DNA of 64,000 nucleotides from a phage. The notes below the pieces were generated by a model, which was given only the letters and a program-made list of their open reading frames with translations, did not search any database and was not told the origin of the DNA. The position numbers and the translations under genes are program-made. The stretch lies in the sequence record PZ534511.1; one strand, 5' to 3'. The first letter of the stretch is position 1, and every line of letters starts with the position of its first letter. This document shows positions 1-59,890 of this stretch, piece after piece.

Positions 1-298
1 TTTCTGTCACCTTAAAAGTTTTGCCGTGGTTTGTCCACGAAAACTGGTTAGGTTGGTAGACAATCTTTCTTATAGTGTCTGGGTATTTAGGGTGGGATTT
101 CCTGTTTAGTGTGGCAAACCCAGATGCCAGCATACCCATCGTGCCATCTCCTCTAGCTTCCCTGTAGATATTGCATGCCAGAATGTTTTCCTTAGTATCT
201 GATGGCTTGCAAGTATGATATACTTTTTGTTTTGGTGCTGCAACAACAGGCAGCGATAAAAGTGCGCTCAAAATAATAGCAAAGATCTTAATTTTCAC
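1..298 (-). CDS. Secreted cell-wall hydrolase, SleB/Hydrolase_2-like (partial; 3' end beyond window start)
   Basis: Own minus-strand translation: GTG start at 298-296 after GGAG; frame open to position 1; signal peptide MKIKIFAIILSALLSLPVVAAP; motifs IYREARGDG, ATLNR, YPDTI, QPNQFSW. Absent from track because no stop in window. Confidence 0.6.
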   Translation of the reverse strand, partial: MKIKIFAIILSALLSLPVVAAPKQKVYHTCKPSDTKENILACNIYREARGDGTMGMLASGFATLNRKSHPKYPDTIRKIVYQPNQFSWTNHGKTFKVTE

Positions 299-307
299 AA
301 TGACTCC

Positions 308-334
308 AAATAGAAAATCCCCGCCGAAGCGGGG
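308..334 (-). terminator. Rho-independent terminator
   Basis: Hairpin CCCCGC-cgaa-GCGGGG (319-334) followed on minus strand by ATTTTCTATTT. Confidence 0.5.
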
Positions 335-347
335 GAGGTCTTAGAAA

Positions 348-728
348 TTAATCGTAGTGTGCCAAAATCTCTCCATCGTTGCAAGTTCCCTCTACAAAGT
401 TATGAAGATTCATGCACTCATCTTGATAGAAGAATTTACCGCTTTTCAGCCGTAGGCCAAACAACTCCGCATCTCCACGATGGCAAGCCTCTACAAGTTC
501 ATAGATTTCATACGGCAACTCTCCGTCGTCATGGAAGAATCCAGCCTTATCGTTGACATAAATGAAGAAATAATCACTGCTATCGCAAGCGTCCAATATT
601 TTAAACCAGACTTCATCTACATCTTTTTCTCGGATATCGATCACGCAAGTGGAGCTGCATTCGTACTCCTTCTCCGGCTCCTCGGTCAATACCACCAGGT
701 AGTTTCCCCGCTTACCTACTTTAGCCAT
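348..728 (-). CDS. Hypothetical protein
   Basis: Track ORF 348..776; start moved to internal ATG (MAKVGKRGNY) preceded by G-rich RBS, removing overlap with ATPase gene. Confidence 0.5.
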   Translation of the reverse strand: MAKVGKRGNYLVVLTEEPEKEYECSSTCVIDIREKDVDEVWFKILDACDSSDYFFIYVNDKAGFFHDDGELPYEIYELVEACHRGDAELFGLRLKSGKFFYQDECMNLHNFVEGTCNDGEILAHYD

Positions 729-738
729 ACAACCCCCC

Positions 739-1923
739 TTAAGCTTTAGCCAAAATGGCGCTAAACTCTTCACCAAACTCTTTTACAATCTTCATCAGGT
801 TTGGGTATGCTTTGATCAGCTGAGCAACAATCTTGTCACGCCCTTTACCGATAAGCAAGGCATTTCCTAAGGCATTAGGTTTCATCATCGCCATAAAGAC
901 TGAGAATACAAAATCTCGGTTCTCGTCCTTGAAGTTTTCCCAAAGGAAATCGAGGAAGTTTGCCACGCAGCTGACAAGATCTTCGTCTGAGATACTTGCA
1001 TTTTCCATCATATTGCGAATAGCGATACAACCTTCAGATCCAAGAATCCACAAAATGTCTGGCTGCTTAGGACCTACGTATTCTTTGCAGCCACCTGCCA
1101 TAATCCGACCGATTTCCGGTAAATTACGTTTCTTGGTGTGGTAAGTCCAGATCTCTACCGCTGCAGTGTGACCAATAGCACCTTGTAGAAGAACACGGGC
1201 CATAGCGTCAGAAATAATACCGCTGTCAAAATCGTGCAAGATGTCAGATGCAGCAACCCAAGATCGTGGTGTGGCAAAAGATGGACAATTAATCTCAGCC
1301 ATAGCCTCATAATTATCAATAGCTGATGGAACTCTTTTCAGATACCCAATTACAGAGGAGTGAACCCCGTTGAGGAATGCGTAGTCCTCAATAAACACCT
1401 CTGCATTGCTTGTAACCTCTACAATGATAAAACGGTTAGCCAGAGGGGCTTCGAGCGCCGAAAGAACCGCACCATCTGTAGAACGGTTACCCGCAGCCAC
1501 AAAAACAGAACCTTTAGGGAATGCATAGGTGCCGCACTTGTGGTCAAGCATAATTTGCATTGCAACCTTTTGCAGGTAGTTATCTGCATGAGTGAGCTCA
1601 TCCAGAAAGATAATTCCGCTCCAGTCAGGATCCGCAGGCCAAAATTCTGGAATTGCAAACACTGTACGTGTAGTTCCATCCGCTTCTACAGGGATAGGTA
1701 GCCCAGATAAGTCGGCAGGATCTTTATCTGACAGTCGCACGTCAACAAGGTTGTCATCTCGCTCACCGAACATATTATCAGCGATCTGCTTCATCACCTG
1801 GCTTTTACCCACACCCATTGGTCCCAAAATTAGGACAGATCGGCTATGACGTTGGGCAAACTGAATAATAGCTGGCAACTCACGGACAGTGATTTGACCA
1901 CTTTCGAATACGTTTCTTGACAT
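739..1923 (-). CDS. AAA+ ATPase, MoxR/CbbQ-like (AAA_5 type)
   Basis: Walker A GPMGVGKS, Walker B IIFLDEL, VFVAAGNRS sensor region; 394 aa. Confidence 0.8.
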   Translation of the reverse strand: MSRNVFESGQITVRELPAIIQFAQRHSRSVLILGPMGVGKSQVMKQIADNMFGERDDNLVDVRLSDKDPADLSGLPIPVEADGTTRTVFAIPEFWPADPDWSGIIFLDELTHADNYLQKVAMQIMLDHKCGTYAFPKGSVFVAAGNRSTDGAVLSALEAPLANRFIIVEVTSNAEVFIEDYAFLNGVHSSVIGYLKRVPSAIDNYEAMAEINCPSFATPRSWVAASDILHDFDSGIISDAMARVLLQGAIGHTAAVEIWTYHTKKRNLPEIGRIMAGGCKEYVGPKQPDILWILGSEGCIAIRNMMENASISDEDLVSCVANFLDFLWENFKDENRDFVFSVFMAMMKPNALGNALLIGKGRDKIVAQLIKAYPNLMKIVKEFGEEFSAILAKA

Positions 1924-2192
1924 TAGTAAAAGTCCTCTACTTGTGTGTAAGTGTTTTCAAAGTTTTCCAAAACAGATATCACATCGAATCTGTCAATATC
2001 ATACGTGACTCTCCAGTTGTACGCAACCCTTTCTGCTGTTGCCTCTTCTGGCGCTAGTCGTCTGCTGGCATAAAAGAGTGTTGGAGTACACTTTCTTGCT
2101 TGCCCTCTAACTTTCCCATAATAATATCTGTGAATATCTTTGTCAAAATTTAACTCTTTTTCTGCACGAAGTTCATATTGCTGGTATAACAT
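1923..2192 (-). CDS. Hypothetical protein
   Basis: Track ORF in tightly packed minus-strand operon; no recognisable motif. Confidence 0.5.
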   Translation of the reverse strand: MLYQQYELRAEKELNFDKDIHRYYYGKVRGQARKCTPTLFYASRRLAPEEATAERVAYNWRVTYDIDRFDVISVLENFENTYTQVEDFY

Positions 2193-2236
2193 CTCTACTA
2201 CTCCTTAAGCAGCATCCTTGCCGCCATTCCTGCCCA

Positions 2237-2617
2237 CTAAAATGCAGTCCGAATCCAGACAAGGTTCTTATCTGCCCAATCATAGAGGCAAGTCATTGCA
2301 CTATTGAATTGCTCACACGGAGGATAATCTTCTTCCATCTGGCGCATAGCAGAGCCTTGTGGGTAAAGCTCCCGTGCTGCAAACCACGCGTCGTAGTCAT
2401 CAACGGTGTCGAAGTAGTATACAACATCCTCTAACTCAGGATCGAACTTTGAACTATCAGGATCCAGTTGTTCAGGGAACTTGGAGCGTAACTTGCCAGC
2501 CACAATACTTGCCAACTCGCTAACATGCTTATTGTCCCACTCCACTAGCTTCCCGTCTTCAGTGATGCGTCCTAACCACTGATCATGAAGGTCAACTGTT
2601 GTCTTCCACTGAGCCAT
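2237..2617 (-). CDS. Hypothetical protein
   Basis: Track ORF, same operon; acidic; no motif recognised. Confidence 0.5.
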   Translation of the reverse strand: MAQWKTTVDLHDQWLGRITEDGKLVEWDNKHVSELASIVAGKLRSKFPEQLDPDSSKFDPELEDVVYYFDTVDDYDAWFAARELYPQGSAMRQMEEDYPPCEQFNSAMTCLYDWADKNLVWIRTAF

Positions 2618-2619
2618 TA

Positions 2620-2877
2620 TCAGTCCACCTCTTCTTCTCGTTGTAGTTCAAGATACCCGTAGGTCTGGACATCTTGAAGGGTGTGGAACTCCCCCTCTGC
2701 CGCTAAGGCACGAACAACTTGGCACAAAACCTTATGAGGAACTTCATCCAAACCTAGATTCAGTGCAGGAAACACCTTATCTAAGTCAACAAAATAAACG
2801 AACTGTAGCTCACCAGCTTCAAAAGGTGTATCTTCAATAAACATCTTCTCGGCATTAGTCAAGATCTGCACTTTCAT
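2620..2877 (-). CDS. Hypothetical protein
   Basis: Track ORF; start/stop abuts neighbours. Confidence 0.5.
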   Translation of the reverse strand: MKVQILTNAEKMFIEDTPFEAGELQFVYFVDLDKVFPALNLGLDEVPHKVLCQVVRALAAEGEFHTLQDVQTYGYLELQREEEVD

Positions 2878-3233
2878 TATTCTACCTCCTCTTCTTTTTC
2901 TTCGGCATTAGTTTCATGGCTACCCCACTCGGGAGTTTCCACCTCGATAGTAAACTCACGCACTACACGGTAATTGCCCATGAAGCGCTCTACTTCGTCA
3001 AGGCTTATGGAGAGGCCATTGGCAACCAGGTCTGCAGCACCCTCTTCTACCAGGTAGTCCAGATTGGCTTCCAGAGCCTTAGGTTCAAACCCTGTCAATG
3101 CAATCAGATAACCTTCCCCTTCATCAGGGAGGACAATACAGCCCAATTGATTTTCTTTAAAAAGGCAGTGACCATCATTATTGATTGGGTGTTCATTGCA
3201 GTAAATAGCTGCACGATAAGTAACTTTAGACAT
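2877..3233 (-). CDS. Hypothetical protein
   Basis: Track ORF 2877..3254 (TTG); likelier start is ATG at 3233 (MSKVTYRA...) 9 nt after AAGGAG; this start region is one copy of a 29-bp inverted repeat. Confidence 0.5.
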   Translation of the reverse strand: MSKVTYRAAIYCNEHPINNDGHCLFKENQLGCIVLPDEGEGYLIALTGFEPKALEANLDYLVEEGAADLVANGLSISLDEVERFMGNYRVVREFTIEVETPEWGSHETNAEEKEEEVE

Positions 3234-3238
3234 CGGTA
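3210..3238 (-). repeat. 29-bp perfect inverted repeat, copy A (TACCGATGTCTAAAGTTACTTATCGTGCA on minus strand)
   Basis: Covers ATG and first 7 codons (MSKVTYRA) of gene 2877..3233; identical to 5072..5100 on plus strand. Confidence 0.85.
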
Positions 3239-3246
3239 AGGTCTCC

Positions 3247-3525
3247 TTAGGCAATTGTCATTTTACATTCTTGAAATTTTAACACAAGACGGTGATTGTG
3301 TCTAGTGTCTAAAAAGATTTTTTCAACCATCAGGCACACGGTATAACCGTCCATCTTGTTGACAACAAAATCTCCAGGATGAGGGAGGATGTCTCCCGGA
3401 TTGGGGAAACATAGTCCACTCAGAAAGGCATCGTCAGTGGTGGACTTAATAGATTTCCACACACTGTCTGCCTGAACATGTTCACCGACGTAATATACAT
3501 TACCACATGCCTTCATCATAGTCAA
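3247..3525 (-). CDS. Hypothetical protein
   Basis: Track ORF; 4-nt overlap with upstream gene. Confidence 0.45.
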   Translation of the reverse strand: MTMMKACGNVYYVGEHVQADSVWKSIKSTTDDAFLSGLCFPNPGDILPHPGDFVVNKMDGYTVCLMVEKIFLDTRHNHRLVLKFQECKMTIA

Positions 3526-4421
3526 ACCCTCGCATAAATTAAACTTGTATCAGTATACTTCTTTAATGGGTAAATATCCTGTCCATAGATGCAATCATTA
3601 AACACCTCATCTACCCAAAGGCTACACTTATATCCCATCATTTCTAAAACACCCATCTCTTCTTCGGTAAACTTATCACCGCTCTTGCAAGATGTCAATA
3701 CCTCATTCTGAACTCTTGCTACCTCGAAGCGGTTATTGGCAATATCGCTATTGGCGATCAAATACTCACCTAGAGGGTGTGCGGCATTAAAGATGCACAG
3801 CGGACGGCTGACGTAATAGTCTCCAGGTGTATAAAAATTGTTGAGGTCTTTCACTAGAACATTCTTATCAGTCACTTCATTTATAACATCATGCATATCG
3901 CACATCTTTATATGTTTGAGGATTCCATCCCCCATCACAAAATAAAAACTTGCTGAGACACTTTCGGCATAGATCTTACTAGATCCGTTGTAGTTGTATT
4001 TTACTCGGATGCTAACGGGGGTTTTTCCTGTCGCGTTAGCCATCATCCAAAGAAATGGCAGCTCATACTTCTCCTCTGAGGAAACAAAAGGTGAGGTAGC
4101 CAGAGATCGAAAACCTCCAGAGAAGTTGAAAGTTACAGAACCGCTCCGGCGGTATGATACCGCGTATTCTACTTTTATATCGACATACCCATTGGAATAG
4201 GTGTGTCCTTCATTATCTAAATATGTCCACTTATCAGACCCAGATACCAATCTACGCTCAATAACCTTCATCACTATAGGAATTAATGGGTTGGTACAAA
4301 CCGCTTTTGAAGTAGCTTTATCATCTAAAGCCTCGTAAATTGCAGAAAGGATGTCCCCAGCTGAAAGATTGGTTGTTATGTCCTGTTTCCACCGCGTACT
4401 AAAACTGTTAAGATTTGCCAT
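3522..4421 (-). CDS. Hypothetical protein
   Basis: Track ORF, 299 aa, first gene of minus-strand operon. Confidence 0.5.
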   Translation of the reverse strand: MANLNSFSTRWKQDITTNLSAGDILSAIYEALDDKATSKAVCTNPLIPIVMKVIERRLVSGSDKWTYLDNEGHTYSNGYVDIKVEYAVSYRRSGSVTFNFSGGFRSLATSPFVSSEEKYELPFLWMMANATGKTPVSIRVKYNYNGSSKIYAESVSASFYFVMGDGILKHIKMCDMHDVINEVTDKNVLVKDLNNFYTPGDYYVSRPLCIFNAAHPLGEYLIANSDIANNRFEVARVQNEVLTSCKSGDKFTEEEMGVLEMMGYKCSLWVDEVFNDCIYGQDIYPLKKYTDTSLIYARV

Positions 4422-4503
4422 AAGTAAGTGCTCCTATGTTAGTTTTCTTTCGAATGGGTGCACTATATTGTGGAGTTAGAGTAAAGTCAACACGTTTTTG
4501 ATG

Positions 4504-4532
4504 TTGACATCTGTTGAGACAATTGATACGAT
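4504..4532 (+). promoter_or_regulatory. Sigma70-like promoter (TTGACA-17-TACGAT)
   Basis: In divergent intergenic region; would place TSS about 25 nt upstream of ATG 4564. Confidence 0.4.
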
Positions 4533-4563
4533 TTCTTCACTTACAGAGCACGAGAGACGACTC

Positions 4564-5541
4564 ATGAATCTTGAAAAATATTATACACCAGAAGAGTTAG
4601 AGCGCTTGCTCAAAAAATATAGACGCAAACAGAATAACGCACGGAAACGAGATATAGAGTTCGACCTGTCATGGGAAGAATACCTCCTATTTGGTAAAAA
4701 ACTTTTAGGAGATGGAGTATGCGACTATACCCTTATACCTTTTGACATGCACACAGATGAAAACGGGCTGGGGAATCCTTTCTACCCATCTCTGGAGCGG
4801 ATAGATGATGAAGGTCCTTATGCGGCTGATAACTGTTGTGTGGTGGGATTGAGATGCAACTCTCTAAAGGACTGTCTGGTAGATAAAAAGACTGCAGTCT
4901 TGATTAAAGACGAAACTGATCGAAAAATTGTCCAGCAGATGATGCTCCACCTGAGCGAAGAGCGTATGGAGAAATTGAAAGGTGATTATACTTTTGAAGA
5001 TTTCATCTTGCAATATGGAACGGAAGAGGATAAACTAGCACTCTTTGACGAAGAAGAGGAGGAAGATATGCTACCGATGTCTAAAGTTACTTATCGTGCA
5101 CCCAAGAAGCACATTTCCGACATTGTAAACGAGCCTATCACAGAAGAGATTGAAGAAATGACGCAACAGGTGCATGAAGAGGAAAAAGAGACTCAGGAGG
5201 TCGAAGAGGAGCTTACAGAAGAGGTTCCTGCACTACCTGATGATGTTGAGATTGCCAAAGCTTACACTTTCTATTGTCAAACGTTCTACGATGTAGGTAT
5301 GAAAGTTGATCTGTCATTCAGCCAATTTAAGAGTTCGTATATTCGCAAATGCTGTGCTTTAACTGGTGAACGTCTTGGAGCTGGACTTAAACCCCTGTTG
5401 GTGACCGACTGGAATAAAGGTTTCACTAAAGGAAACTTTATGGTAGTATCTCCAATTATGGAGAAAGCTATGACAGATCTTATGAAGACCACCCGCATGA
5501 CAATGACCGAGTTGGCAGGTATTTTCAAACACGTTAAATAA
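4564..5541 (+). CDS. Hypothetical acidic protein
   Basis: Track ORF 4498..5541; start placed at ATG 4564 downstream of promoter-like element; Glu-rich centre; internal in-frame ATG at 5077 lies in second copy of the 29-bp repeat. Confidence 0.5.
   Translation: MNLEKYYTPEELERLLKKYRRKQNNARKRDIEFDLSWEEYLLFGKKLLGDGVCDYTLIPFDMHTDENGLGNPFYPSLERIDDEGPYAADNCCVVGLRCNSLKDCLVDKKTAVLIKDETDRKIVQQMMLHLSEERMEKLKGDYTFEDFILQYGTEEDKLALFDEEEEEDMLPMSKVTYRAPKKHISDIVNEPITEEIEEMTQQVHEEEKETQEVEEELTEEVPALPDDVEIAKAYTFYCQTFYDVGMKVDLSFSQFKSSYIRKCCALTGERLGAGLKPLLVTDWNKGFTKGNFMVVSPIMEKAMTDLMKTTRMTMTELAGIFKHVK
5072..5100 (+). repeat. 29-bp perfect inverted repeat, copy B
   Basis: Inside ORF 4564..5541 in frame (LPMSKVTYRA), preceded by GAGGAGG; flanking bases differ. 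Confidence 0.85.
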
Positions 5542-5546
5542 TGACA

Positions 5547-5572
5547 GGGGCCAATGGCCCCTTCTGGAGTTT
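5547..5572 (+). terminator. Terminator-like hairpin (weak)
   Basis: GGGGCC-aat-GGCCCC after stop of 4564..5541; short T-run. Confidence 0.3.
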
Positions 5573-5574
5573 TA

Positions 5575-7035
5575 ATGGATAGCAGAAGTTCAGAAATCAT
5601 TGCCTCGCAGAAAGATGATGCCCTGAGAATGTTGCAGGCTGCACGTATGTATCTCCTTGAAAAGCTGCCGTTTTATGGCACACTACTGTCAGGGTTGCAG
5701 TTCGTAGAAAACCACACATGGTGCTCCACCATGGCAACCGACCATAAACGCATCTACTACAGCCCTGAGTTCATTATGGGGTTGGCGGATGAGCGTAAAA
5801 CCATTCTTAAAGCATCTCTGACTGACAAGCAGTTTGAGATGGCTGAGGTTTTCTATTCCCCAAAATCTGTGAAAGAGGTGGCCTTTCTTCTGTCACATGA
5901 GGTGGGGCATATTATCTGTGATCATCTGGTCCGTGGTAAAAGCTTTGAGCCGGAACTGTTCAATATTGCTTGTGATCACGTTATCAACACAGGTCTTGTG
6001 GTTGACTTTAGCAAGCCTCCTTGTGTTTTCTTCCCGAAGGGGAAAAGCACTGAGTTCGTAAAAGGTAAGCCTTTTGGCTTCTTAGCTAATTGCTACTGCG
6101 ACATGAGGTTTCATGGATGGATTGCTGAGAACGTCTATGCAGTTCTTGATAAACAAAGAGATCAGAATGGCGGTAAAAGTAAGAACGGTAAAGGTGAGAA
6201 CTCCCAAGGAGATAAACGACAAACCGATGATCACATGAGCGGGAACGGTGGCACTAGTGATGATCTTGGAAAGGCTATGGGGTATGATCAGCCGCAACCA
6301 GTAATCAGTCAATCTGACAAAGATCAGGCCATGCAGGACTCTGGTGACATGTTGGAAGCAGCAATGCAAGCTTCAGGAGGTCGTTGCCCCGAGGCGGTGC
6401 GCGAGTTTGTCAAAAACAGAGGCAAGCCTGTAATCAATTATATAGATATTATTAAGCAACGTATGTTATCTAAAAGAAAGGCTGAGTTAACCTACAGAAA
6501 ACCTGGTCGCCGATCTGGGTCTTTGACCACCACAATGCGAAAAGTTGGAGCTATAAACAAGAATCAACACGTTATTGTTCCTGGTCGTAATCCGGAAAAC
6601 ACTATAGATATTGTAGTGGCTTTAGACGTTTCTGGGTCGATCTCACAAAGAACTTTAAAGAAAATGTTCAATGAGATCACCGGGTTGTGCAATTTGTATA
6701 AAGAGTTTAAGGTTACTATGTTCTGTTGGTCAACGGAGGTTGGAGAGGTTAAAGTATACACTCGCGGTAACATCGATGAGATGATTAACTATGAGGTCCA
6801 CTCAACATGGGGCACAACAGCCGCCTGCGTGTTCGAGTATCTGGATGCTAACATACCGAATGCAAAAGATGTCATCGTCCTTACCGACCTCTACTTTGAG
6901 CATAACTTTGAACAAAAGGCTGTTGACAACAAGTGGAAAAAGTACGATACTTTATGGGTTCTCACCGAAGGGTATAATAAAAATTATATCCCGAGCTTTG
7001 GGAAAACTGTGGAATTAATCGAGTACGCTAAGTAA
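5575..7035 (+). CDS. VWA-domain protein with N-terminal HExxH metallopeptidase-like motif
   Basis: HEVGHIICDH near residue 115; MIDAS-like VVALDVSGSIS near residue 350; start moved to ATG 5575 after GGAG (track start 5554 sits in a hairpin). Confidence 0.7.
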   Translation: MDSRSSEIIASQKDDALRMLQAARMYLLEKLPFYGTLLSGLQFVENHTWCSTMATDHKRIYYSPEFIMGLADERKTILKASLTDKQFEMAEVFYSPKSVKEVAFLLSHEVGHIICDHLVRGKSFEPELFNIACDHVINTGLVVDFSKPPCVFFPKGKSTEFVKGKPFGFLANCYCDMRFHGWIAENVYAVLDKQRDQNGGKSKNGKGENSQGDKRQTDDHMSGNGGTSDDLGKAMGYDQPQPVISQSDKDQAMQDSGDMLEAAMQASGGRCPEAVREFVKNRGKPVINYIDIIKQRMLSKRKAELTYRKPGRRSGSLTTTMRKVGAINKNQHVIVPGRNPENTIDIVVALDVSGSISQRTLKKMFNEITGLCNLYKEFKVTMFCWSTEVGEVKVYTRGNIDEMINYEVHSTWGTTAACVFEYLDANIPNAKDVIVLTDLYFEHNFEQKAVDNKWKKYDTLWVLTEGYNKNYIPSFGKTVELIEYAK

Positions 7036-7050
7036 GAGAGGATGGTATTT

Positions 7051-7571: not shown

Positions 7572-7572
7572 T

Positions 7573-7806: not shown

Positions 7807-7822
7807 CAAAAAGGAGATAACC

Positions 7823-8514: not shown

Positions 8515-8516
8515 TC

Positions 8517-11044: not shown

Positions 11045-11047
11045 GAA

Positions 11048-16972: not shown

Positions 16973-18718
16973 TTAACGTTGTGCAATTACTACGTCTACG
17001 ATATCACCAACACCACAATATGTTAATTGCAGCAAGGTAACACTATTAGCCTTGTTATTAATAACAGGCGTTGCCGACAGGATAGCATACTTATCGTGCA
17101 AAGTCACGTTGTGACCTACAGCATCCTGAATGACATAGATAACCGCAGTGAATGGATAAGGTTTATCTTCCGCTGATGTACCAGGCCATTGTCCTATTGT
17201 AAAATCCCCTTTCGCGTGGACAACATACATACTGGCCTGCCCGTTAGGTGTCCATGTCCCACTGGACGCGTCAACCTCCTCTAAATCAAAATCTACCTTT
17301 CCTGCGTGGAAAGTAGGGGCAGTAATGGTTTTACCCGCCTCAATTTCTTGAGAGGTGGTTATCTTGCCACTGGAGTTAATGCCATTACAAACAAAGTTGA
17401 CATTAGAGAAGTCTGGCAGCCACCCAGTCACTGTGCCGGATATTTCAAGGTTGTGAAGGTAGGTGGTGCCCGTCCCTGCTGCGTTTAAACTAACATCTCC
17501 ATTTACCTGCAAGTTTCTGGTAACGTTGCAGTTTTCAGAGTTTGCAGTTGTTGCAGTTAAAGTAGTGGTTGTCAGCTCGGTAATTACACCTTTGTTGGCT
17601 GTAAGCCCTTCCCCTTCAAAAGTTGCACGCTCATTGACTCTTAGGGTATTCAGAGCTATGTTTTGGATAGAGGCTGTACCTCGAATAACTACAGATCCGC
17701 CAACTTCTAAATCACCATTTATTAATGCGTCCCCCGTGCTTTCAATATAGCTAGGGTAAATCATGGTGCCATCGACAGAGTAGGTTATCCCTGTAACAGT
17801 GCCTGTCACCTCAAGGTTCTTAACCCTGGTGGTTCCATCTACCTGCAATGTCGGTTCGGTTGCTGCCTTCATGGCATTACCACGAATGTACACGTAGTCA
17901 AAAAAGTTATTACCTAGACCATCAAAATGCACATCGTTATTATTAGCCACTGGTTTCCCAGAAGTTATAGTGTCAGCTATAACCCTGTGGGTGGACACTT
18001 CATGAGGTTGCAGCTCTGTGCTTCTCCAGTCTGCATGCTTAGGATCACTCCACGCAAAAGTAAGTGTAGAAGTATTTGCCGTGAGGATTAGGTTCCTGAA
18101 GCGTGCAGTAGAATCTGCTCCATTAACAGGCCCATGTAAGGTGAGTGTGCCACCAACTATAGTGTTAGCAAGTTCTGTAAGACCTTTTACCACCAAAGAT
18201 CCTACAGTAACTTTCATTCCCTCCATGGCTTCAAATATGCTATCCACATAGTCAACAACAAACTCTGTGTTTGCTATAGACTCGGATTTGTCGTCCATTG
18301 GAGGCGTAGGTACTCGCGGGTCACCTTCGAACCTCGGACTGTTAAGTTTTGCGTAGTATTTTGCCATTACTGCAGAATCGGTATATAATCTCCAGTTTGG
18401 AGATTGTGAAGGATCTGCTGGCATTCTAACCGGGTTAGATTTTGATGCTGCGGGAGCGTACCACCACTGAGGGCCTGTGTCCCCTTTAAACTCGTACAGC
18501 TGGTTAAAAACTGTTGTGGATGCACCATACGCCCAAGGGATCGGTGGCGTTTTAAAATAAAGGGTGTCAAGCATGGCTTTTCGTACCGTAGGGATGGTGG
18601 TCCCATCCTCTACGACAACTTCATCCACAGCGTTACCGTTGACAATCAGGTGCAAACGTTCAGAATCAACAATTACTTGATCTACCGCCTGCTCAAAGCT
18701 TGTCATGTCTTGCGCCAT
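16973..18718 (-). CDS. Tail fibre/tailspike-like protein (581 aa)
   Basis: Position in fibre cluster; Thr/Gly/Asn-rich repeat-like composition. Confidence 0.45.
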   Translation of the reverse strand: MAQDMTSFEQAVDQVIVDSERLHLIVNGNAVDEVVVEDGTTIPTVRKAMLDTLYFKTPPIPWAYGASTTVFNQLYEFKGDTGPQWWYAPAASKSNPVRMPADPSQSPNWRLYTDSAVMAKYYAKLNSPRFEGDPRVPTPPMDDKSESIANTEFVVDYVDSIFEAMEGMKVTVGSLVVKGLTELANTIVGGTLTLHGPVNGADSTARFRNLILTANTSTLTFAWSDPKHADWRSTELQPHEVSTHRVIADTITSGKPVANNNDVHFDGLGNNFFDYVYIRGNAMKAATEPTLQVDGTTRVKNLEVTGTVTGITYSVDGTMIYPSYIESTGDALINGDLEVGGSVVIRGTASIQNIALNTLRVNERATFEGEGLTANKGVITELTTTTLTATTANSENCNVTRNLQVNGDVSLNAAGTGTTYLHNLEISGTVTGWLPDFSNVNFVCNGINSSGKITTSQEIEAGKTITAPTFHAGKVDFDLEEVDASSGTWTPNGQASMYVVHAKGDFTIGQWPGTSAEDKPYPFTAVIYVIQDAVGHNVTLHDKYAILSATPVINNKANSVTLLQLTYCGVGDIVDVVIAQR

Positions 18719-18727
18719 GATTTCTCC

Positions 18728-18994
18728 TTAAGCTTTTTGCTCTTCGTTTTTAACGTGGTCAGGGTGCTGGCAACCCCACCGGAGCGAGATGAATTTGCTA
18801 ATAAGCTGGGGGCAAGCTACTGAAGGCGCGTATATCCACGCATACCATTCAGGAAGCGTATCATTATACCCCATATGAATAAACACCCCAGTCATCACCG
18901 CCATGCCTATGTTCGACCATAGCTTAGATTGGGACACTTTCGTAGGGTCATCAGATGCCGCAACCAGTCCCCATAAAAACTGAGTTAGTTTCAT
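18728..18994 (-). CDS. Small membrane protein (88 aa)
   Basis: Hydrophobic segment LWSNIGMAVMTGVFIHMGY; immediately downstream of fibre paralog B. Confidence 0.4.
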   Translation of the reverse strand: MKLTQFLWGLVAASDDPTKVSQSKLWSNIGMAVMTGVFIHMGYNDTLPEWYAWIYAPSVACPQLISKFISLRWGCQHPDHVKNEEQKA

Positions 18995-19005
18995 TTACCC
19001 TCTTT

Positions 19006-20052: not shown

Positions 20053-20138
20053 GTTCTCCTGAGAAAATTCCTTAGGACTATTTTAACACTTTAGAGAACA
20101 AAATGCAAGAACGGAGTCCTTTCCGTTCTGACCTTTGT

Positions 20139-20453
20139 TTACCTTTTACTATGCTCTACGAGCATGTGCAAAATCTTTTGTACATCAGCTCGGATGCCGG
20201 AGACATCTGTCCTGACATCCTGCTTAAGGTCGTTAATATCGGCCTCTAGCTTGCTTAACCGAGTCTCGATAACGGAATCAAGTCTATCTTTTGTAACCAT
20301 ACTGTTTTTCACTAAGATGAGGTCTTTCTCCAGCTCATCCAACCTCTTGGAAATGCCTTTCCATTTGGTGTGCCACTGGTTGAAAGCCCATACACAGATC
20401 GGGACAACGGTACCCATGCAGATACCGTACAATGCCGCCAAATCCAACTCCAC
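20139..20453 (-). CDS. Membrane-anchored coiled-coil protein (104 aa)
   Basis: N-terminal hydrophobic helix LAALYGICMGTVVPICVWAF followed by heptad-like region. Confidence 0.4.
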   Translation of the reverse strand: MELDLAALYGICMGTVVPICVWAFNQWHTKWKGISKRLDELEKDLILVKNSMVTKDRLDSVIETRLSKLEADINDLKQDVRTDVSGIRADVQKILHMLVEHSKR

Positions 20454-20464
20454 AACACCTCCTC

Positions 20465-21049: not shown

Positions 21050-21063
21050 GCTAGTCCTCCGAT

Positions 21064-50298: not shown

Positions 50299-50300
50299 AA

Positions 50301-51128: not shown

Positions 51129-51149
51129 GGGACACTCCTGTTAAACCCT

Positions 51150-51184: not shown

Positions 51185-51208
51185 GTATGGGATGAATCAC
51201 CTTAGTGA

Positions 51209-52219: not shown

Positions 52220-52267
52220 TTATTTCTCCAAAGTAAAACTTAAATATTTTCCCGAACAATTTAGGAC

Positions 52268-52657: not shown

Positions 52658-52677
52658 TTATTTCCCCCGTTAATGTC

Positions 52678-54230: not shown

Positions 54231-55698
54231 CAGCCCTACTGATGTCCTGGCCCAAGAGCTTCATCAGCTCTTCCTGATCCATGTCCTCGTCAAATCTTTC
54301 ATCAAACCCGCCTACTTCAAGAATCTTATTAATTACTGCAGGAGTTTTTGGCAAGTAACCTACAGCACCGATCCTCTGGACAAATTTGGAGAAGCTCTCC
54401 ATGTCCACCTCTTCAATCAGACCAGGTTTCAGTTTAGGCATATCATCATCTTCAAGGATGATACCATTCAATGCCAGAAGCTGTGGAATAAGATCCTTAT
54501 TGAAGGCTTCAGTGATAATATCTATATCACGCTGAACAAAATGACCATGGATAGACTGTTTTGACTCAGACAGAGAGAAGGATCCAACGTTATCGTTACC
54601 GAGGTTAATAAAGCCAGCACCGAAACGGTCAAGAATCGCCTTCTTACGGGCATCAATCAAATCTTTAGTCGAATACTGCTTACCCATACCATCAACCCCC
54701 TTCAGGGTCATGGAGTAAAGCTCTTTACCAGACTTATCTCTATCAGACGGAAGTATAAAGAAACTTTGCTCACCACTATGGGCGTTTGCTGCGTCAAGCA
54801 TAAGGTCTGCAACCATTCTCCCTTCCATTGAATTCGGGTCAATGCTGGCCTTGTTCAAAATATTGGAAGGAATTTTCAGCTCAAGCACGCCACCAAGGTC
54901 TTTGGAACAGCCAACAACCTCAAGGTTTTCAATCAGAACTTTCTCACGGAAAGATCTGTAGCAACCTATCATCGGTGACACACCTGCAGGGTTAGATTCT
55001 GTTCCTGACAGGGTCATGAGCATAAGCTTTTTAGCAGGGATGAAAATTTCAGGCTCATTAAAGCCTTTTGAAGGCATTGCAGCAAGAGGTCCAGCCCAGC
55101 GTGCATTCTGAGTGTTTAGAAATGCATTAGGTGACTGATAAATACCTGTCAGTGTTCTACTATTCTTGTCAAAAACAAACGGCTCTGATCTGGACAGGCT
55201 GGCCTGAGGTCGGAATGCAATTTTATCAATAAGAAGCATCCCGGCATATTTACCTTCTTTCTCTCTGCGGTATACTTTCTCAAACAGTGAAAAACCATAC
55301 TCGTTAAAGGTAGCTGCGCTTCTTGCAATATCTCGAAGAGTTTGTTGGTTTGCCAAATTACGCAAAGAATACTCTATAAGCTCGGCAGCTTTCTTAGAGT
55401 CTTCACTTTTAACATTATAAAGGATCTTAAAATCATTGAATGCTTTCGTGATGAAAACATATTTTGTATCTAAGGCAGTAGCAACTGTGGAATCACATTT
55501 CATAGTCTCCACTGTGGCAATCAGCTGAGGCCAACGCAATTCCTCAACCATCATAGATTGCGATTCTGCCATAATTTGGGAAAGTGCGCCAGAACCGATC
55601 TCACTCATACGAACATTATGAGTTGGTGCGCCTGCGTTCCCAGATTTATTCACAGTTTTGGCTGTGGCGTTGTGTTTCCTGCGGTTCTTTTTGGACAC
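54142..55698 (-). CDS. Portal protein
   Basis: 518 aa directly downstream of terminase. Confidence 0.65.
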   Translation of the reverse strand: MSKKNRRKHNATAKTVNKSGNAGAPTHNVRMSEIGSGALSQIMAESQSMMVEELRWPQLIATVETMKCDSTVATALDTKYVFITKAFNDFKILYNVKSEDSKKAAELIEYSLRNLANQQTLRDIARSAATFNEYGFSLFEKVYRREKEGKYAGMLLIDKIAFRPQASLSRSEPFVFDKNSRTLTGIYQSPNAFLNTQNARWAGPLAAMPSKGFNEPEIFIPAKKLMLMTLSGTESNPAGVSPMIGCYRSFREKVLIENLEVVGCSKDLGGVLELKIPSNILNKASIDPNSMEGRMVADLMLDAANAHSGEQSFFILPSDRDKSGKELYSMTLKGVDGMGKQYSTKDLIDARKKAILDRFGAGFINLGNDNVGSFSLSESKQSIHGHFVQRDIDIITEAFNKDLIPQLLALNGIILEDDDMPKLKPGLIEEVDMESFSKFVQRIGAVGYLPKTPAVINKILEVGGFDERFDEDMDQEELMKLLGQDISRAGDGMAAGSTGNGTSKMSSTRDNSISNMEN

Positions 55699-55798
55699 AA
55701 GCTTTACCCCTCAAAACAGTATAACAAAATAGCCCTCGTCAGAGGGCTAGTATCTCCAATTACTTTATTGTACCACATCTAATTAAGATTGGCAACAC

Positions 55799-56605
55799 TT
55801 AGATAAAACGCTTGAACATAGAAGGTGATGAGATTGATGGAATCACACAAGGAAGTGCTACCTCCTCTTTCTCCAGGAAATTAATCGCAGAAGCTACGCA
55901 GTCGGCCCAGTCGTCTTTTCTGTTAAATGTTGATCTTTCCCCGTTGAATTTTTCAAGTTCAGTCAGAAATGCTTCCAGAGTATCAGGATGGAAACTGGAT
56001 TTTACAATCCTCACCATTCCTTGTTGGGCAAGATTGGCAAAAGGTGAGAACCTTGTCAGTTTAGACTTGTTGGAAGGCATTGGGTCTTCTTCAACCCTGA
56101 ACCCTTCGGCAAGCAAGGATCTGGAGGAGGTTAAGAACTCACTCTTACCTGCCTGCCCTGGGTCCACAGAGAAGACGATTATGCAATCATCACCATCGAA
56201 CTGCGCCTGTTTCCTGATGATCACATCTCGTTCACCAGCCTTTTTACAGAACTTGCCTTCCAGACCTGTGGAATACCTCCCGTCATCCACGTTCTCAGGA
56301 CAATAATCACCGGACAGGTAATAAAAGCCGTCGCTATCTTTACTTACCTTAATACTGGCAGTAAAGTCAGGAAATTTATTACCGGAAGTTCTCTCGGTTC
56401 CTGCCTTATCCCATGCCCTGCAAGATACTGACCCAAGAGGTACTCTATCGGCATCACGAAGGAAAGATCTTTGAAAATAGTTTGCACCCTCAGGCTTTGC
56501 AAACCAGTTACCATGGAGAAGCTGAGCTTTTTCCAGCTCTGGTAGACCTTCAAGGAAAGCAAGGTATTCTGGGTTATCTCTCAGGCAGACAGGATTATCG
56601 AATCC
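55799..56605 (-). CDS. terL: Terminase large subunit, exon 3 (nuclease domain)
   Basis: Frame open from in-frame stop at 56606-56608; GFDNPVCLRD..LLHGNWFAKPEG..SVSCRAWDKAG..DDWADCVASAINFL; track ORF 55799..56290 is its 3' part. Confidence 0.7.
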   Translation of the reverse strand, partial: GFDNPVCLRDNPEYLAFLEGLPELEKAQLLHGNWFAKPEGANYFQRSFLRDADRVPLGSVSCRAWDKAGTERTSGNKFPDFTASIKVSKDSDGFYYLSGDYCPENVDDGRYSTGLEGKFCKKAGERDVIIRKQAQFDGDDCIIVFSVDPGQAGKSEFLTSSRSLLAEGFRVEEDPMPSNKSKLTRFSPFANLAQQGMVRIVKSSFHPDTLEAFLTELEKFNGERSTFNRKDDWADCVASAINFLEKEEVALPCVIPSISSPSMFKRFI

Positions 56606-57578
56606 TTATATTCAAAGGTGGTCGCAACACCACCTTCCGCACCTTTACGTGCTGCTGCATGTTACCATGCAGAGTAGACTATATCACCACCCATTTCAGG
56701 GTGCTTCGCTTTTCGAGCGCCATAAGCTTGCGCCCTACTCCCTCTCGGGATAGTCGTTGAACTACATTACCAATCGTAATTGTTTGAAATATAGGTGTAA
56801 GTCTTACGGTCTTTTATTCCTTTAACAACACTAAAACTTACTCCCCACTTCTTAGCTATTTTATTGACACACAAGACCTTATCACTAAGATCCTCGCAGA
56901 TACCTATTATCTTGTGCTCACTTATCCGATTAGAGGTTGGCACTTTTCTAAAGTTAAACTCTTTAGAAATATCTGGGTATACTGAGCCATTCTTTATACC
57001 ACTTACAAGTGGTTGATTGACACCGAACATTTCACAAATGTCTTTTACCCTTGCGCCTTGTTCTAACAGCCTACATATTTCAAGAGCAGTGGCATCATCC
57101 AGGGACCTGTATTTATTGACATAGTCCTTTTTAAGTCCCATTTCATGAGCGTGATGTGTGTTTTCCTCAGGCGTTGTCCACTCAAGGTTCCATGCGGCGT
57201 TATTCAACTTATTACCATCTAGGTGGTTTACTTGAGTTTTCACGCTGGGATTGTCATTATCAACAAAAGTCATAGCAATCACTCTGTGAACGAGCACTTG
57301 GAACTTTTTACCGTCCTCGCACAAAGTTACCATAGCATAGCCAGTCTTTTTCTGCACATTAGGATGGAGGAATTTATTAGAATACAGACTGTAAATTCTG
57401 CCATCGTATGTAGCACAATAATGATTGTAGCCTAAAAAGCCTAAATTTTTCATTTCAAACATCTCCCTACTACAGGTTCGGAAGGGTAATTATAGCTGCT
57501 GATTGTCCGTTTAGCAATCGGATTTCCCAGCAATTAACGAAGTTATTCGACGTGCATTTCTGCACGAAGCCACTATCA
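56606..57578 (-). mobile_element. Group I intron 2 in terL, with HNH endonuclease ORF
   Basis: P AATTGCTGGGAAA (~57523-57535), Q AATCAGCAGC (~57495-57504, compensatory to P), R GTTCAACGACTATCC (~56748-56762), S GATATAGTC (~56677-56685); boundaries approximate. Confidence 0.65.
56767..57462 (-). CDS. HNH homing endonuclease (HNH_3-like), intron-encoded
   Basis: NHLDGNKLNNAAWNLEWTTPEEN motif; C-terminal HTH-like region; between Q and R elements of intron 2. Confidence 0.75.
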   Translation of the reverse strand: MFEMKNLGFLGYNHYCATYDGRIYSLYSNKFLHPNVQKKTGYAMVTLCEDGKKFQVLVHRVIAMTFVDNDNPSVKTQVNHLDGNKLNNAAWNLEWTTPEENTHHAHEMGLKKDYVNKYRSLDDATALEICRLLEQGARVKDICEMFGVNQPLVSGIKNGSVYPDISKEFNFRKVPTSNRISEHKIIGICEDLSDKVLCVNKIAKKWGVSFSVVKGIKDRKTYTYISNNYDW

Positions 57579-57902
57579 TTTAATGGTTGCGCCTATAAAC
57601 GAGAATGACAACGGTCTTGGCTTGATCTCAACACCCAGTCCGTTAACCGTGGTGTATTTCTCTATCAACTCTTCTTTAGAGTCTCCCCAGATAAATTCAC
57701 CGTCGCGTCGGATAAAATATCTTTTCTTACCGCATTTCTCCGGATCTGGATACCCTTCATCGTCCAACCACCATCTAACCAGTTTGGCAAGCATGTGTTC
57801 TGAATCGGGGTTACAGCTGATAACCATTCTTGATGGATACTTTGACTGAGATCGCAGACGAGACATCAGATAGTCTATCTGCTCCCATTCGAATTGTGTC
57901 GT
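57576..57902 (-). CDS. terL: Terminase large subunit, exon 2 (ATPase C-terminal part)
   Basis: Frame open from stop near 57903-57905: TTQFEWEQIDYLMSRLRSQSKYPSRMVISCNPD; exact 3' end (5' splice site) probably just upstream of 57579. Confidence 0.55.
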   Translation of the reverse strand, partial: TTQFEWEQIDYLMSRLRSQSKYPSRMVISCNPDSEHMLAKLVRWWLDDEGYPDPEKCGKKRYFIRRDGEFIWGDSKEELIEKYTTVNGLGVEIKPRPLSFSFIGATIK

Positions 57903-58782
57903 TTATGTTCGGGCAAGGTCGCTAGTCTTGCCCCGCCATTTTCAGGCAGCTGCATGTCTCCATGCAGACCAGACTATATCTTATGAATGTGTAAATACTC
58001 TGCCGCTCTAAGAATAGTTTCCTCATCCTCTTGGAAGAAACCTAAAGCTCTGTTGCATTTATCACAAAGCAACCCTCTTACAGCACCAGTTTTATGGTCA
58101 TGATCAACACAAAAGAAATCTCTATACCCTTGCGTCCTATACTCATCAAGGGATATTCTACAAATGGCACACTTATGATCTTGATCTGAGAGTAGACGAT
58201 AGTATTCATCTTTTGTTATGTGAAATTTCTTCTCAATCTGATAAAACTTTTCACACATCTTACACCTGTTCGTAACCAGATATACTTTACCATAGTCACG
58301 TTTTGTGTAAAAACTATCAGCGAGCATACTTTCATGACAAGATTTGCATTCAAAAAGTTCACCTTTCTTCAGCAAGTCTTGAATAAACAATGCTGCGTCA
58401 TCTCTCTTAACCATATTTTTGTTTTTACGAGATCCACCCTTCCTGTAGTACATATAGCATTCCTTGCATGTACCTGAGTATCCATCCTTGCTCTTAGATG
58501 ATAAAAAGAAATCATCAATAGGTAGAACTCTTTGGCAATCCATACATTTTTTAGTATTACACATTCACCCTCCCGTTTCGAATCGCTTGATTCTACGTCT
58601 TTCGACTAGTCGTTGAACGTTCATCCTCTCGGATGCTTCGCTGCGGATTATCTAAATTAACACACTGTTACCATACCTTCGATCTCTCTTCGAAGCCTCT
58701 ATCATGTTACCATGACAGGTTGGTGGTGTCAATAATAAAGATTTCCCCGCAATTAGGGAGGTTTTACGAGAGCTACAAATTA
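57903..58782 (-). mobile_element. Group I intron 1 in terL, with HNH endonuclease ORF
   Basis: Minus-strand core elements: P AATTGCGGGGAAA (~58742-58754), Q AATCCGCAGC (~58640-58649), R GTTCAACGACTAGTC (~58604-58618), S AAGATATAGTC (~57972-57982); boundaries approximate. Confidence 0.7.
57974..58564 (-). CDS. HNH endonuclease (endonuclease VII-like) with CxxC zinc fingers, intron-encoded
   Basis: CVDHDHKTGAVRGLLCDKCNRALG motif; several CxxC pairs; between R and S elements of intron 1. Confidence 0.75.
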   Translation of the reverse strand: MCNTKKCMDCQRVLPIDDFFLSSKSKDGYSGTCKECYMYYRKGGSRKNKNMVKRDDAALFIQDLLKKGELFECKSCHESMLADSFYTKRDYGKVYLVTNRCKMCEKFYQIEKKFHITKDEYYRLLSDQDHKCAICRISLDEYRTQGYRDFFCVDHDHKTGAVRGLLCDKCNRALGFFQEDEETILRAAEYLHIHKI

Positions 58783-59208
58783 ACCCTCATCGAAGCAAAC
58801 CATGGTATACTCAAGCCCTTGATGGTTAAGCTTATCTTGTACATACTCCATGTGGCAGTATTTTACAACAGCTCCCTTTTTGCTTCTATCCCACTTGCCG
58901 GTGTTCGGATCAAACCGTGGAAAAATGAACTTATGATCCTTCTCTCTGAACTTTGGCTTAATGTTTTCAGGCAGATCACTATAAATAGCTACTGCTTTAG
59001 GCCATAGTCCACCCTCACCTTCCAACTGTGGGGTTGTTCTTCGGAACATAACCACAGAGCTGTGGGGGTCATCAATAATTTTAAGTGGCATCAATTGCAA
59101 GAGGAACGACTTGCCAGACCCTGCGGCACCGCCGATTACCAAAATATCTGCATCGTTTTCAAGGATCATCTTCTGCTTTTCAGAACACGGTCCGTAAATC
59201 TTAGACAT
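58780..59208 (-). CDS. terL: Terminase large subunit, exon 1 (ATPase N-terminal part)
   Basis: Walker A GGAAGSGKS; Walker B MVCFDE just before stop at 58780-58782, followed by intron P element. Confidence 0.75.
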   Translation of the reverse strand: MSKIYGPCSEKQKMILENDADILVIGGAAGSGKSFLLQLMPLKIIDDPHSSVVMFRRTTPQLEGEGGLWPKAVAIYSDLPENIKPKFREKDHKFIFPRFDPNTGKWDRSKKGAVVKYCHMEYVQDKLNHQGLEYTMVCFDEG

Positions 59209-59495
59209 TAACCTCTCTCCTTTGGAAACAGTGTTCTAATATAGTCTTGCAAAATGATCAATTTAGCTCTATCATTGCTACAAGACAGATTATTATCCCT
59301 CATAATGCCAGAATTCACTGCATCTGGCGCACCTTTCTTCAAAGGCATAGCTTTAGCAGGTGGTTTCATGGCACCTTCCGGGGGTTTAACAATCAACCTT
59401 CCTACATCAGGAGGGTCAATCTTGTATTCTCTCTCAACGCTGGTTGCACACCCACATAATAACAAGCACACAATAAACAGTGCAGCAACTCTCAT
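59208..59495 (-). CDS. Outer-membrane spanin (o-spanin, Rz1-like lipoprotein)
   Basis: Signal peptide with lipobox-like LLLCGC; Pro-rich mature region; overlaps i-spanin by 4 nt. Confidence 0.55.
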   Translation of the reverse strand: MRVAALFIVCLLLCGCATSVEREYKIDPPDVGRLIVKPPEGAMKPPAKAMPLKKGAPDAVNSGIMRDNNLSCSNDRAKLIILQDYIRTLFPKERG

Positions 59496-59890
59496 CGACC
59501 CTCCTGATTAATACTCTCATTATAAATATCTATAAGCTGATCAGGGAGTGTTGACTTCTTACCCTCAGGTGATTGGAGGTAAATAATCTGCTTTTCTTTA
59601 CCTGCCCTCTCAGCTATATTTAATTTATCCTGCAGATCAGAAAGAGATTTTTCAAGGTTTTTAACCTCCTCTGCGTGGCCCATTTTAATCTTGTCGGCCT
59701 GCTTTTGTTGCTGATCAAGGATCCGTTCCCACTTTAACTCTGTTGCTGACACACCCTCCTGGTAGGCATCATTAAGCTTGGAGTTAAACCAATACACGGC
59801 CCCAAGATAAGCTGTACCTATCGCAGCTGCAAAAACTAAACCTTTTATGATCCCTTTATACCTACTCAGCCATGTTAAAACTGAAATCAT
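59492..59890 (-). CDS. Inner-membrane spanin (i-spanin, Rz-like)
   Basis: N-terminal TM helix IIKGLVFAAAIGTAYLGAVYWF plus coiled-coil periplasmic domain. Confidence 0.55.
   Translation of the reverse strand: MISVLTWLSRYKGIIKGLVFAAAIGTAYLGAVYWFNSKLNDAYQEGVSATELKWERILDQQQKQADKIKMGHAEEVKNLEKSLSDLQDKLNIAERAGKEKQIIYLQSPEGKKSTLPDQLIDIYNESINQEGR

Follow-up and report, generated by a model that had tools for sequence, protein, structure and literature searches.

The stretch of phage DNA analyzed here comprises 64,000 nucleotides (nt) of sequence record PZ534511.1 (hereafter the window), and its lysis genes are the subject of this work. Judged by nucleotide identity, the window is part of the genome of a Vequintavirus (rV5-like), a virulent Escherichia coli myophage with a genome of ~137 kb, and it covers the rIIA-proximal, structural and packaging half of that genome. 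Positions 1-2000 are 100% identical to positions 2183-4182 of Escherichia phage Murica, positions 58700-61200 are 98.9% identical to O157 typing phage 14, and the 25 kb from 39001 to 64000 are 97.6-97.9% identical to rV5-like genomes; overall, the identity to Murica, LL12 and rV5 is 97-100%. The minus strand carries most of the genes of the window. A first-pass annotation, made from the window alone, had reported dispersed lysis functions, namely a truncated, signal-bearing SleB-like hydrolase at the left end and a spanin pair next to the large terminase gene (terL), with no obvious holin, and had raised the possibility of holin-independent or pinholin-type lysis. The features at the two loci are as follows:

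1-298, minus strand: first 99 codons of the gene for a 166 amino acid (aa) SleB-like hydrolase (Pfam Hydrolase_2), with a GTG start at 298
319-334, minus strand: GC-rich intrinsic terminator hairpin CCCCGCTTCGGCGGGG with a T-run, ~20 nt upstream of the hydrolase start (found by scan, and also present in the Murica annotation)
58780-59208, minus strand: N-terminal segment of terL (Pfam Terminase_6N, E 1.1e-5; phrog_9526, E 1.9e-75)
59208-59495, minus strand: o-spanin, 95 aa (PHROG 1267 'Rz-like spanin', E 2.3e-22)
59492-59890, minus strand: i-spanin, 132 aa (PHROG 4297 'Rz-like spanin', E 1.4e-48)
59917-59930, minus strand: terminator-like hairpin with a T-run, immediately ahead of the ribosome-binding site of the i-spanin (consensus match only)

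The window itself holds only residues 1-99 of the hydrolase (the minus-strand translation of 1-298 is VKIKIFAIILSALLSLPVVAAPKQ...), and the full-length protein was taken from Murica. The complete 166-aa protein matched Pfam Hydrolase_2 (E 2.1e-19, 70.5 bits, with a cut-off of 27 bits), PHROG 938 'endolysin' (E 1.6e-27) and the catalytic domain of Bacillus SleB (PDB 4f55, E 2.4e-6), so that the assignment made from the truncated gene holds for the completed one. The RefSeq label of the gene is 'endolysin'. Glu47 of the hydrolase, within the motif YREARG, aligned with the Glu of the SleB motif YGESRGE (4f55 and 4fet), which, from the SleB structure papers, we take to be the catalytic residue.

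The N-terminus of the hydrolase, KIKIFAIILSALLSLPVVA↓AP, resembles a Sec signal peptide: it has a basic n-region (KIK), a hydrophobic h-region (IFAIILSALLSL) and small residues at the putative cleavage site (PVVA↓A), the class of signal and its cleavage being judged by a rule of thumb. In an alignment of four divergent homologues (A1: the Murica protein and those of a Klebsiella phage, Salmonella phage SSBI34 and the phi92-like phage VEcB), the Pro at -5, the Ala at -1, two Cys and Glu47 were all conserved. When 80 SleB-like loci were sampled from viral contigs, ~76 of the 80 open reading frames (ORFs) had an N-terminal hydrophobic signal; some homologues have a lipobox instead, which argues for true export. 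The best 19-residue window of the hydrolase has a hydropathy of 2.34 and a Gly/Ala/Ser/Thr fraction of 0.32, and an AXA-like site is present. The strong hydrophobicity and this low fraction point to a cleavable Sec signal rather than to a signal-anchor-release (SAR) anchor; on these grounds and on the AXA-like pattern, a SAR endolysin was rejected, and the lipobox homologues agree with this. A virion-associated lysin was also considered and rejected, given the export signal of the protein and its absence from the virion proteins that the main text of the rV5 paper names.

As seen in Murica, the remainder of the hydrolase gene and then rIIA lie to the left of the window, and the hydrolase stop codon overlaps the start of rIIA. 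No overlapping or embedded small membrane ORF was found in any minus-strand frame of this junction. No promoter-like site was detected between the terminator at 319-334 and the hydrolase start; therefore, the SleB-rIIA-rIIB message probably arises by read-through. In rV5, genes 10-1-238-164 form one transcription unit (PMC3606486), and the SleB-like gene belongs to this unit, together with replication genes.

At the other locus, the i-spanin has a single N-terminal hydrophobic segment (residues 14-32) preceded by basic residues, and the remainder is predicted to form a charged, helical periplasmic domain. The N-terminus of the o-spanin is MRVAALFIVCLLLCG↓C16-A-T, a lipobox-like LLCG↓C16 without Asp at +2, for which lipidation is predicted; the mature part is proline-rich and has one further Cys. 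The two spanin genes share a 4-nt ATGA overlap, and the o-spanin stop codon overlaps the start of the terL segment in the sequence TAATG. The ORFs at 59492-59890 and 59208-59495 therefore have the architecture, the lipobox and the gene adjacency of an i-/o-spanin pair, in line with the first-pass placement of spanins immediately upstream of the terminase. Since a hairpin (59917-59930) precedes the i-spanin, the spanins form the head of the spanin-terL gene string. By these features the pair is two-component, of the 'separated' type and translationally coupled to terL, and it heads a packaging and structural gene string. LL12 annotates the counterpart of the i-spanin as I-spanin and that of the o-spanin as O-spanin, and slur16 annotates the former as Rz-like spanin. 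Similarly, rV5 appears among the phages with 'separated' two-component spanins in the catalogue of Kongari et al. (PMC6139136), the LL12 announcement names gp66 as i-spanin, gp65 as o-spanin and gp90 as endolysin (PMC6658697), and the CB7 paper places the spanin pairs of CB7, rV5 and PVP-SE1 next to the large terminase and not in a lysis cassette (PMC7344957). The i-spanin is flanked upstream by the gene of an 89-aa protein lacking a hydrophobic segment and then by transfer RNA (tRNA) genes, and downstream by terL. Neither these flanks nor those of the Murica hydrolase contain a holin-like gene, as the first-pass annotation had noted for both loci.

The hydrolase at 1-298 had been taken as the only cell-wall hydrolase. 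This is correct within the window, where the Murica and LL12 annotations name no other hydrolase and ten tail, baseplate and neighboring proteins had no Pfam peptidoglycan-hydrolase domain, but it does not hold for the phage group. In LL12, gp90 'endolysin' is encoded at 71587-72057, 10.06 kb from the i-spanin start, which corresponds to ~6 kb past window position 64000. Its N-terminus is hydrophilic and has no export signal, and it matched the lambda lysozyme (PDB 1am7) with E 3.4e-56. This lambda-R-type endolysin is present at ≥95% identity in 80 phage records, including Murica, LL12 and rV5_ev146, and a lambda-R homologue that is soluble and signal-less lies outside the window in every well-annotated close relative. 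Purified LysECP26, an orthologue of 156 aa with ~62% identity to lambda R, degrades the cell wall and lyses EDTA-treated E. coli (PMC9728275), and rV5 gp89 was called 'an obvious lysin' (PMC3606486). The pinholin-type inference is thereby weakened, because in the relatives the SleB-like enzyme is not the sole lysin, and the premise that it was arose as an artefact of the window edge. Of the classical holin-endolysin cassette that might have lain just outside the window, the relatives have the endolysin but not the cassette. A soluble lambda-R-type endolysin gains access to the wall through the hole made by a holin; as the enzyme of the relatives lacks an export signal, a hole-forming holin would be required.

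Directly after the LL12 endolysin lies gp91 (16122-16328 of locus L004, outside the window), which encodes 68 aa with an N-terminal signal or lipobox-like sequence, MKDFLLAILFMAACLAC..., and belongs to phrog_4641, of 'unknown function'. It could be a small periplasmic protein that acts as a lysis regulator beside the endolysin.

Taken as a whole, the data are best explained, in our judgment with fair probability, by an ordinary holin-endolysin-spanin lysis whose genes are dispersed, with the SleB-like enzyme as an accessory. The lysis functions would be distributed, in the manner of T4, over four or more places. Some hole-forming holin would open the inner membrane, and the soluble lambda-R-type endolysin, seen in the relatives and expected here ~6 kb beyond the right end, would be the principal enzyme and reach the wall through the holin hole. 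The two-component spanin pair would act last, in the order holin, endolysin, spanin. To judge by its domain, its Glu and its signal, the SleB-like enzyme would be exported by Sec, have its signal cleaved, and serve as a second, accessory periplasmic wall hydrolase. Transcripts that pass the strong terminator and run on into rIIA and rIIB would yield this enzyme in small amounts, and it would supplement, rather than replace, the holin-endolysin-spanin pathway.

The neighbors of the SleB-like gene in the sister genera bear on this role. There, an ORF of 51-77 aa with one or two hydrophobic segments, and often with a charged C-terminus, starts between -49 and +25 nt from the hydrolase stop codon; it was found in PVP-SE1, Klebsiella phages, SSBI34 and Certrevirus-type contigs. 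In PVP-SE1 this is gp244 (54 aa), followed by rIIA and rIIB. The Klebsiella phages have a 51-aa ORF ahead of rIIA, which in P8734 (2952-3107 of locus L009) is absent from the GenBank annotation, and SSBI34 has a 76-aa ORF with two hydrophobic segments (2932-3162 of locus L007), which is not annotated in GenBank. Certrevirus-type and other Vequintavirinae-type contigs have ORFs of 62-77 aa after the SleB-like gene, and the 65-aa Certrevirus protein, with two transmembrane segments and a gene that overlaps the SleB-like gene, is a class II holin candidate (PMC7344957). The small ORFs fall into several unrelated families, whose PHROG matches are only 'membrane protein' or 'unknown function'; holins would be expected to show just this combination of a conserved position and diverse sequences. 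In the three rV5-like genomes examined, including Murica, the small ORF is absent and rIIA abuts the hydrolase, and a tblastn search with the sister-genus ORFs against the window, Murica and LL12 gave nothing better than E 0.6. The holin-less flank of the hydrolase appears to be specific to Vequintavirus (and Av-05), and is probably a derived state.

The sister-genus ORF lends some substance to the pinholin proposal of the first-pass annotation. In its full form, the Sec-exported SleB-like enzyme would be the true lysin, unleashed by depolarisation in a pinholin-type or holin-independent manner, the spanins would finish lysis, and the lambda-R-type enzyme would be a later, redundant gain. The conservation of the export signal across the SleB-like homologues is consistent with this view, as are the 'endolysin' name in RefSeq and the small hydrophobic ORF adjoining the hydrolase, a single position filled by unrelated families in the manner typical of holins. 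Furthermore, every genus of Vequintavirinae has SleB-like genes, whereas the second hydrolase differs from one to another, and the CB7 homologue, which has a signal peptide, was reported as toxic when expressed in E. coli, as data not shown (PMC7344957). Against it, the small ORF is missing precisely in Vequintavirus, where the overlap of the hydrolase stop with the rIIA start leaves no alternative-frame membrane ORF, and the sister-genus ORFs have no homologue in the window, Murica or LL12. The relatives possess a functional soluble endolysin, and the SleB-like gene, behind a terminator, is grouped in one unit with the rII and replication genes and not with late genes. A gene of this kind is also carried by T5, in addition to a separate endolysin, which fits an accessory role. 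We therefore regard the SleB-like enzyme as unlikely to be the true lysin.

A related evolutionary scenario can be drawn, in which the ancestral Vequintavirinae module consisted of a Sec-exported SleB-like lysin, a pinholin-like protein with two segments and rIIA-rIIB, and the rV5-like genus lost the small gene, the holin role moving to gp129 or to the proteins of the tail-fibre module. We hold this to be rather improbable. The lambda-R-type endolysin may have been gained in the rV5-like genus when the small membrane gene was lost. If the ancestral module did exist, the coupling of a secreted lysin to rIIA/rIIB would point to rII control of a periplasmic lysin.

If the favoured dispersed pathway needs a hole-forming holin, which gene encodes it? 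In the rV5 paper no holin homologue was found, and gp129 (78 aa, two transmembrane segments, basic C-terminus) was proposed as a holin 'separated ... as in phage T4' (PMC3606486). The gp129 gene lies ~28 kb beyond the window. That gp129 is the holin, as Kropinski et al. proposed (PMC3606486), has in its favor this printed proposal, an architecture equal to that of a class II holin, with two strong transmembrane segments, and its presence in 116 Vequintavirus records. However, it is genus-restricted, with 54-100% identity within the genus, and its neighbors are small genes of 'unknown function', on the strand that also carries the nucleotide-metabolism genes. Later annotators with lysis expertise have not accepted it, and several other small membrane proteins of the genome share gp129-like features. 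When nine other small LL12 membrane proteins (gp129 included) and the four-segment protein of PVP-SE1 were compared with Pfam and PHROGs, no holin family was matched. We consider gp129 a doubtful candidate, although one to be kept in mind.

Two further candidates lie in the tail-fibre module of the window:

20139-20453, minus strand: 104 aa; transmembrane segment at the N-terminus and coiled-coil-like part at the C-terminus (phrog_5345, 'unknown function'); a weak holin candidate
18728-18994, minus strand: 88 aa; a single, marginal transmembrane segment, an amphipathic segment that is conserved and a charged tail that varies (phrog_1322 'membrane protein', E 7.9e-32); a weak candidate for a holin or antiholin

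Both had been described from hydropathy as small membrane proteins. This is borne out for the 104-aa protein, whose Kyte-Doolittle 19-residue mean of 1.91 indicates a clear transmembrane segment, but only marginally so for the 88-aa protein (1.05). With regard to holin architecture, the former thus offers one clear transmembrane segment, and the latter one marginal segment and a charged tail. Neither protein matched a holin family in Pfam or PHROGs, or any Pfam family above the cut-off. A tail-fibre assembly gene (Caudo_TAP) directly precedes the 104-aa gene and a hairpin lies after it; the protein is conserved in 224 phage records across Vequintavirinae. The 88-aa gene lies between two tail-fibre genes; its family is found in 374 phage records, phi92-like and Aeromonas phages among them, and in every case within a tail-fibre or tailspike cluster. 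In the alignment of this family (A2), a conserved hydrophobic core with many invariant Trp, Tyr and Pro residues is followed by a highly variable charged C-terminal tail. The two genes were never linked to lysins or spanins in the 224 and 374 records or in distant metagenome contigs. In PVP-SE1 and in distant metagenome contigs the recurring order is assembly protein, ~105-aa protein, an optional 156-aa membrane protein with four segments, ~85-aa protein and tail fibre.

Three membrane-protein genes stand in a row in PVP-SE1 (1810-6383 of locus L006), encoding a protein of the 104-aa type, a 157-aa protein with four transmembrane segments and a protein of the 88-aa type. In the window, the tail-fibre module spans 16973-22104 (minus strand), and an extra 348-aa tail-fibre gene (19006-20052) occupies the place of the 157-aa gene. 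The label 'DUF2644', a database name of one 88-aa homologue, was dropped, because hmmscan did not reproduce it and no paper using it was found.

The T4 holin gene t follows the tail-fibre genes 37 and 38. By analogy, the missing holin, or a holin-antiholin pair, might be sought in the products of 20139-20453 and 18728-18994. Both genes stand in the tail and head structural string, which is presumably transcribed late, and both are subfamily-wide, the 88-aa family reaching phi92-like and Aeromonas phages. The strong N-terminal transmembrane segment of the 104-aa protein, the conserved hydrophobic core and charged, variable tail of the 88-aa family, and the three consecutive membrane-protein genes at the same spot in PVP-SE1 would suit such a role, and the lack of a holin-family match is shared with the other small membrane proteins of these genomes. 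It counts against the proposal nonetheless, as does the constant company of tail-fibre and assembly genes, never of lysins or spanins. The 88-aa protein is barely hydrophobic, and the many Trp, Tyr and Pro positions that do not vary would fit binding to one particular protein; the charge distribution of the 104-aa protein would put its coiled coil in the cytoplasm, and a membrane-anchored assembly factor fits equally. The AlphaFold2 (AF2) model of the 88-aa protein was of low confidence (pLDDT 58), too low for a fold search. In the text consulted of the phiTE cryo-electron microscopy paper, gp238-gp241 and the word 'transmembrane' are not mentioned, so these small proteins are apparently undiscussed there as virion parts. 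A role in tail-fibre assembly is possible and fits the data at least as well as a holin role, and we consider it very unlikely, on the analogy drawn here, that these two genes supply the holin.

Several points weigh against the dispersed holin-endolysin-spanin pathway that we favor. The holin that it demands is putative: gp129, the published candidate, is confined to Vequintavirus, has no holin-family match and is 'hypothetical' in nearly every record. The lambda-R-type gene is assigned to this exact phage from its relatives, since a search of the phage collection gave no record 100% identical over 39001-64000. Either of the two hydrolases may drive lysis in Vequintavirinae, so that the accessory role of the SleB-like enzyme is presumptive, and the predicted cleavage of its signal peptide follows from a rule of thumb. 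The SleB-like hydrolase is the one conserved in all Vequintavirinae genera, whereas the second hydrolase differs between genera (PMC7344957), and the position of the small ORF in the sister genera suggests that the SleB-like enzyme was possibly the ancestral lysin rather than an accessory.

Other features of the window were also recorded. In this phage terL is split into at least three coding segments, all on the minus strand: 58780-59208 (Terminase_6N), 57576-57866 and 55799-56290 (Terminase_6C). Two insertions were seen, each with an endonuclease ORF, at 57974-58564 (Endonuclease_7) and at 56767-57462 (HNH_3 and a helix-turn-helix). Among the relatives, terL is intact in Murica, has one intron in LL12, and is in three segments in rV5, one with a homing endonuclease. 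When 55500-61300 was compared with Rfam in search of terL group I introns, tRNAs alone were returned, and no such intron reached the gathering score. The tRNA genes upstream of the spanins form one cluster:

60312-61124: tRNA cluster with seven tRNAs

Within it, 60557-60655 (minus strand) is a 99-nt tRNA-like gene for which ARAGORN reads a four-base anticodon, 'atcc', and which scores 35.5 bits with the Rfam tRNA model. Its LL12 counterpart is annotated as tRNA-Lys, with the isotype call flagged as inconsistent; the gene of the window could be an intron-containing or otherwise unusual tRNA. Near the SleB-rII end, two genes lie on opposite strands with ~3.6 kb between them: 739-1923 (minus strand), whose Murica equivalent is an ATPase, named MoxR ATPase in rV5_ev146 and matched here by Pfam only with a sub-threshold AAA_14, and 5554-7035 (plus strand), whose Murica equivalent is a metallopeptidase with a von Willebrand factor domain. 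The 690-aa product of 22117-24189 (minus strand) matched the Pfam 'non-contractile tail sheath protein' TIM barrel (E 4e-80), its N-terminal domain and Calx-beta, and lies in the baseplate and tail-fibre region of this contractile-tailed phage. Finally, ~16-20 GenBank records titled 'Campylobacter phage' (e.g., MG065654 and MG065655) share 97-99% identity with rV5-like phages of E. coli, and were probably mislabelled or grown on contaminating hosts.

Typing sets, food-safety and therapy cocktails and the BASEL collection all include rV5-like phages, and signal-bearing SleB-like hydrolases are widespread in large virulent phages (Vequintavirinae, T5-like and phi92-like). Knowledge of the enzyme and the membrane protein that time lysis would help in engineering rV5-like phages and in choosing lysins from them. 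A practical lesson is that a 64-kb slice of a ~137-kb genome overlooked the principal endolysin.

The lysis set of T4 comprises e, t, rI, rIII, the spanin genes pseT.3/pseT.2 and rIIA/rIIB. The system described here resembles that of T4 in that the lysis genes are dispersed in a large virulent myophage, the spanins have the 'separated' architecture (PMC6139136) and rIIA/rIIB are present. It differs in having a lambda-R-type endolysin instead of T4 E, an extra Sec-exported Hydrolase_2 enzyme, and spanins joined to the terL string; no homologue of the T4 T holin or of RI was found. With the lambda S-R-Rz/Rz1 cassette it shares a two-component spanin and, beyond the window, an endolysin ~62% identical to lambda R. 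However, both the cassette and an S homologue are lacking, the two spanin genes are separate, neither lying within the other, and the lysis genes are 10-30 kb apart.

Exported endolysins are known from Oenococcus phage fOg44 (Lys44, with a cleavable Sec signal) and, as SAR endolysins, from P1 (Lyz) and phage 21 (R21, with the pinholin S21). The SleB-like enzyme has an N-terminal export signal as these do, and in principle could act without a large-hole holin. In contrast to them, its signal is strongly hydrophobic and AXA-like, its fold is that of Hydrolase_2, no pinholin-like gene is adjacent, and the relatives have a soluble second endolysin. Closer likeness is found with CB7_83/CB7_82 of Certrevirus and gp243/gp244 of Seunavirus PVP-SE1: the signal-bearing SleB-like gene is orthologous, with 48-58% identity in Vequintavirinae other than Vequintavirus, and rIIA/rIIB follow in PVP-SE1. 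In CB7 and PVP-SE1, however, a small ORF with two segments directly follows the hydrolase, while none does in Vequintavirus. T5 and T5-like phages similarly combine a signal-bearing Hydrolase_2 'putative cell wall hydrolase' with a different principal endolysin, which in T5 is an L-Ala-D-Glu peptidase (PMC7344957), although the identity is ~40%, the neighboring genes are others and no rII genes are adjacent.

In rV5, LL12 and Murica, the same genes stand in the same order at 97-100% nt identity, with the SleB-like gene by rIIA, the spanins by terL, the lambda-R-type gene and gp129 elsewhere, and no identified holin (PMC3606486, PMC6658697). The dispersal of the lysis genes, the spanins at terL, the secreted SleB-like enzyme and the lack of an identified holin are thus already known from the published accounts of rV5, LL12 and CB7 (PMC3606486, PMC6658697, PMC7344957). 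To these the present comparison of sequences adds the predicted export signal of nearly all the phage SleB-like genes sampled, the small ORF of the sister genera, absent from rV5-like phages, and the assignment of the 88- and 104-aa proteins to the tail-fibre module.

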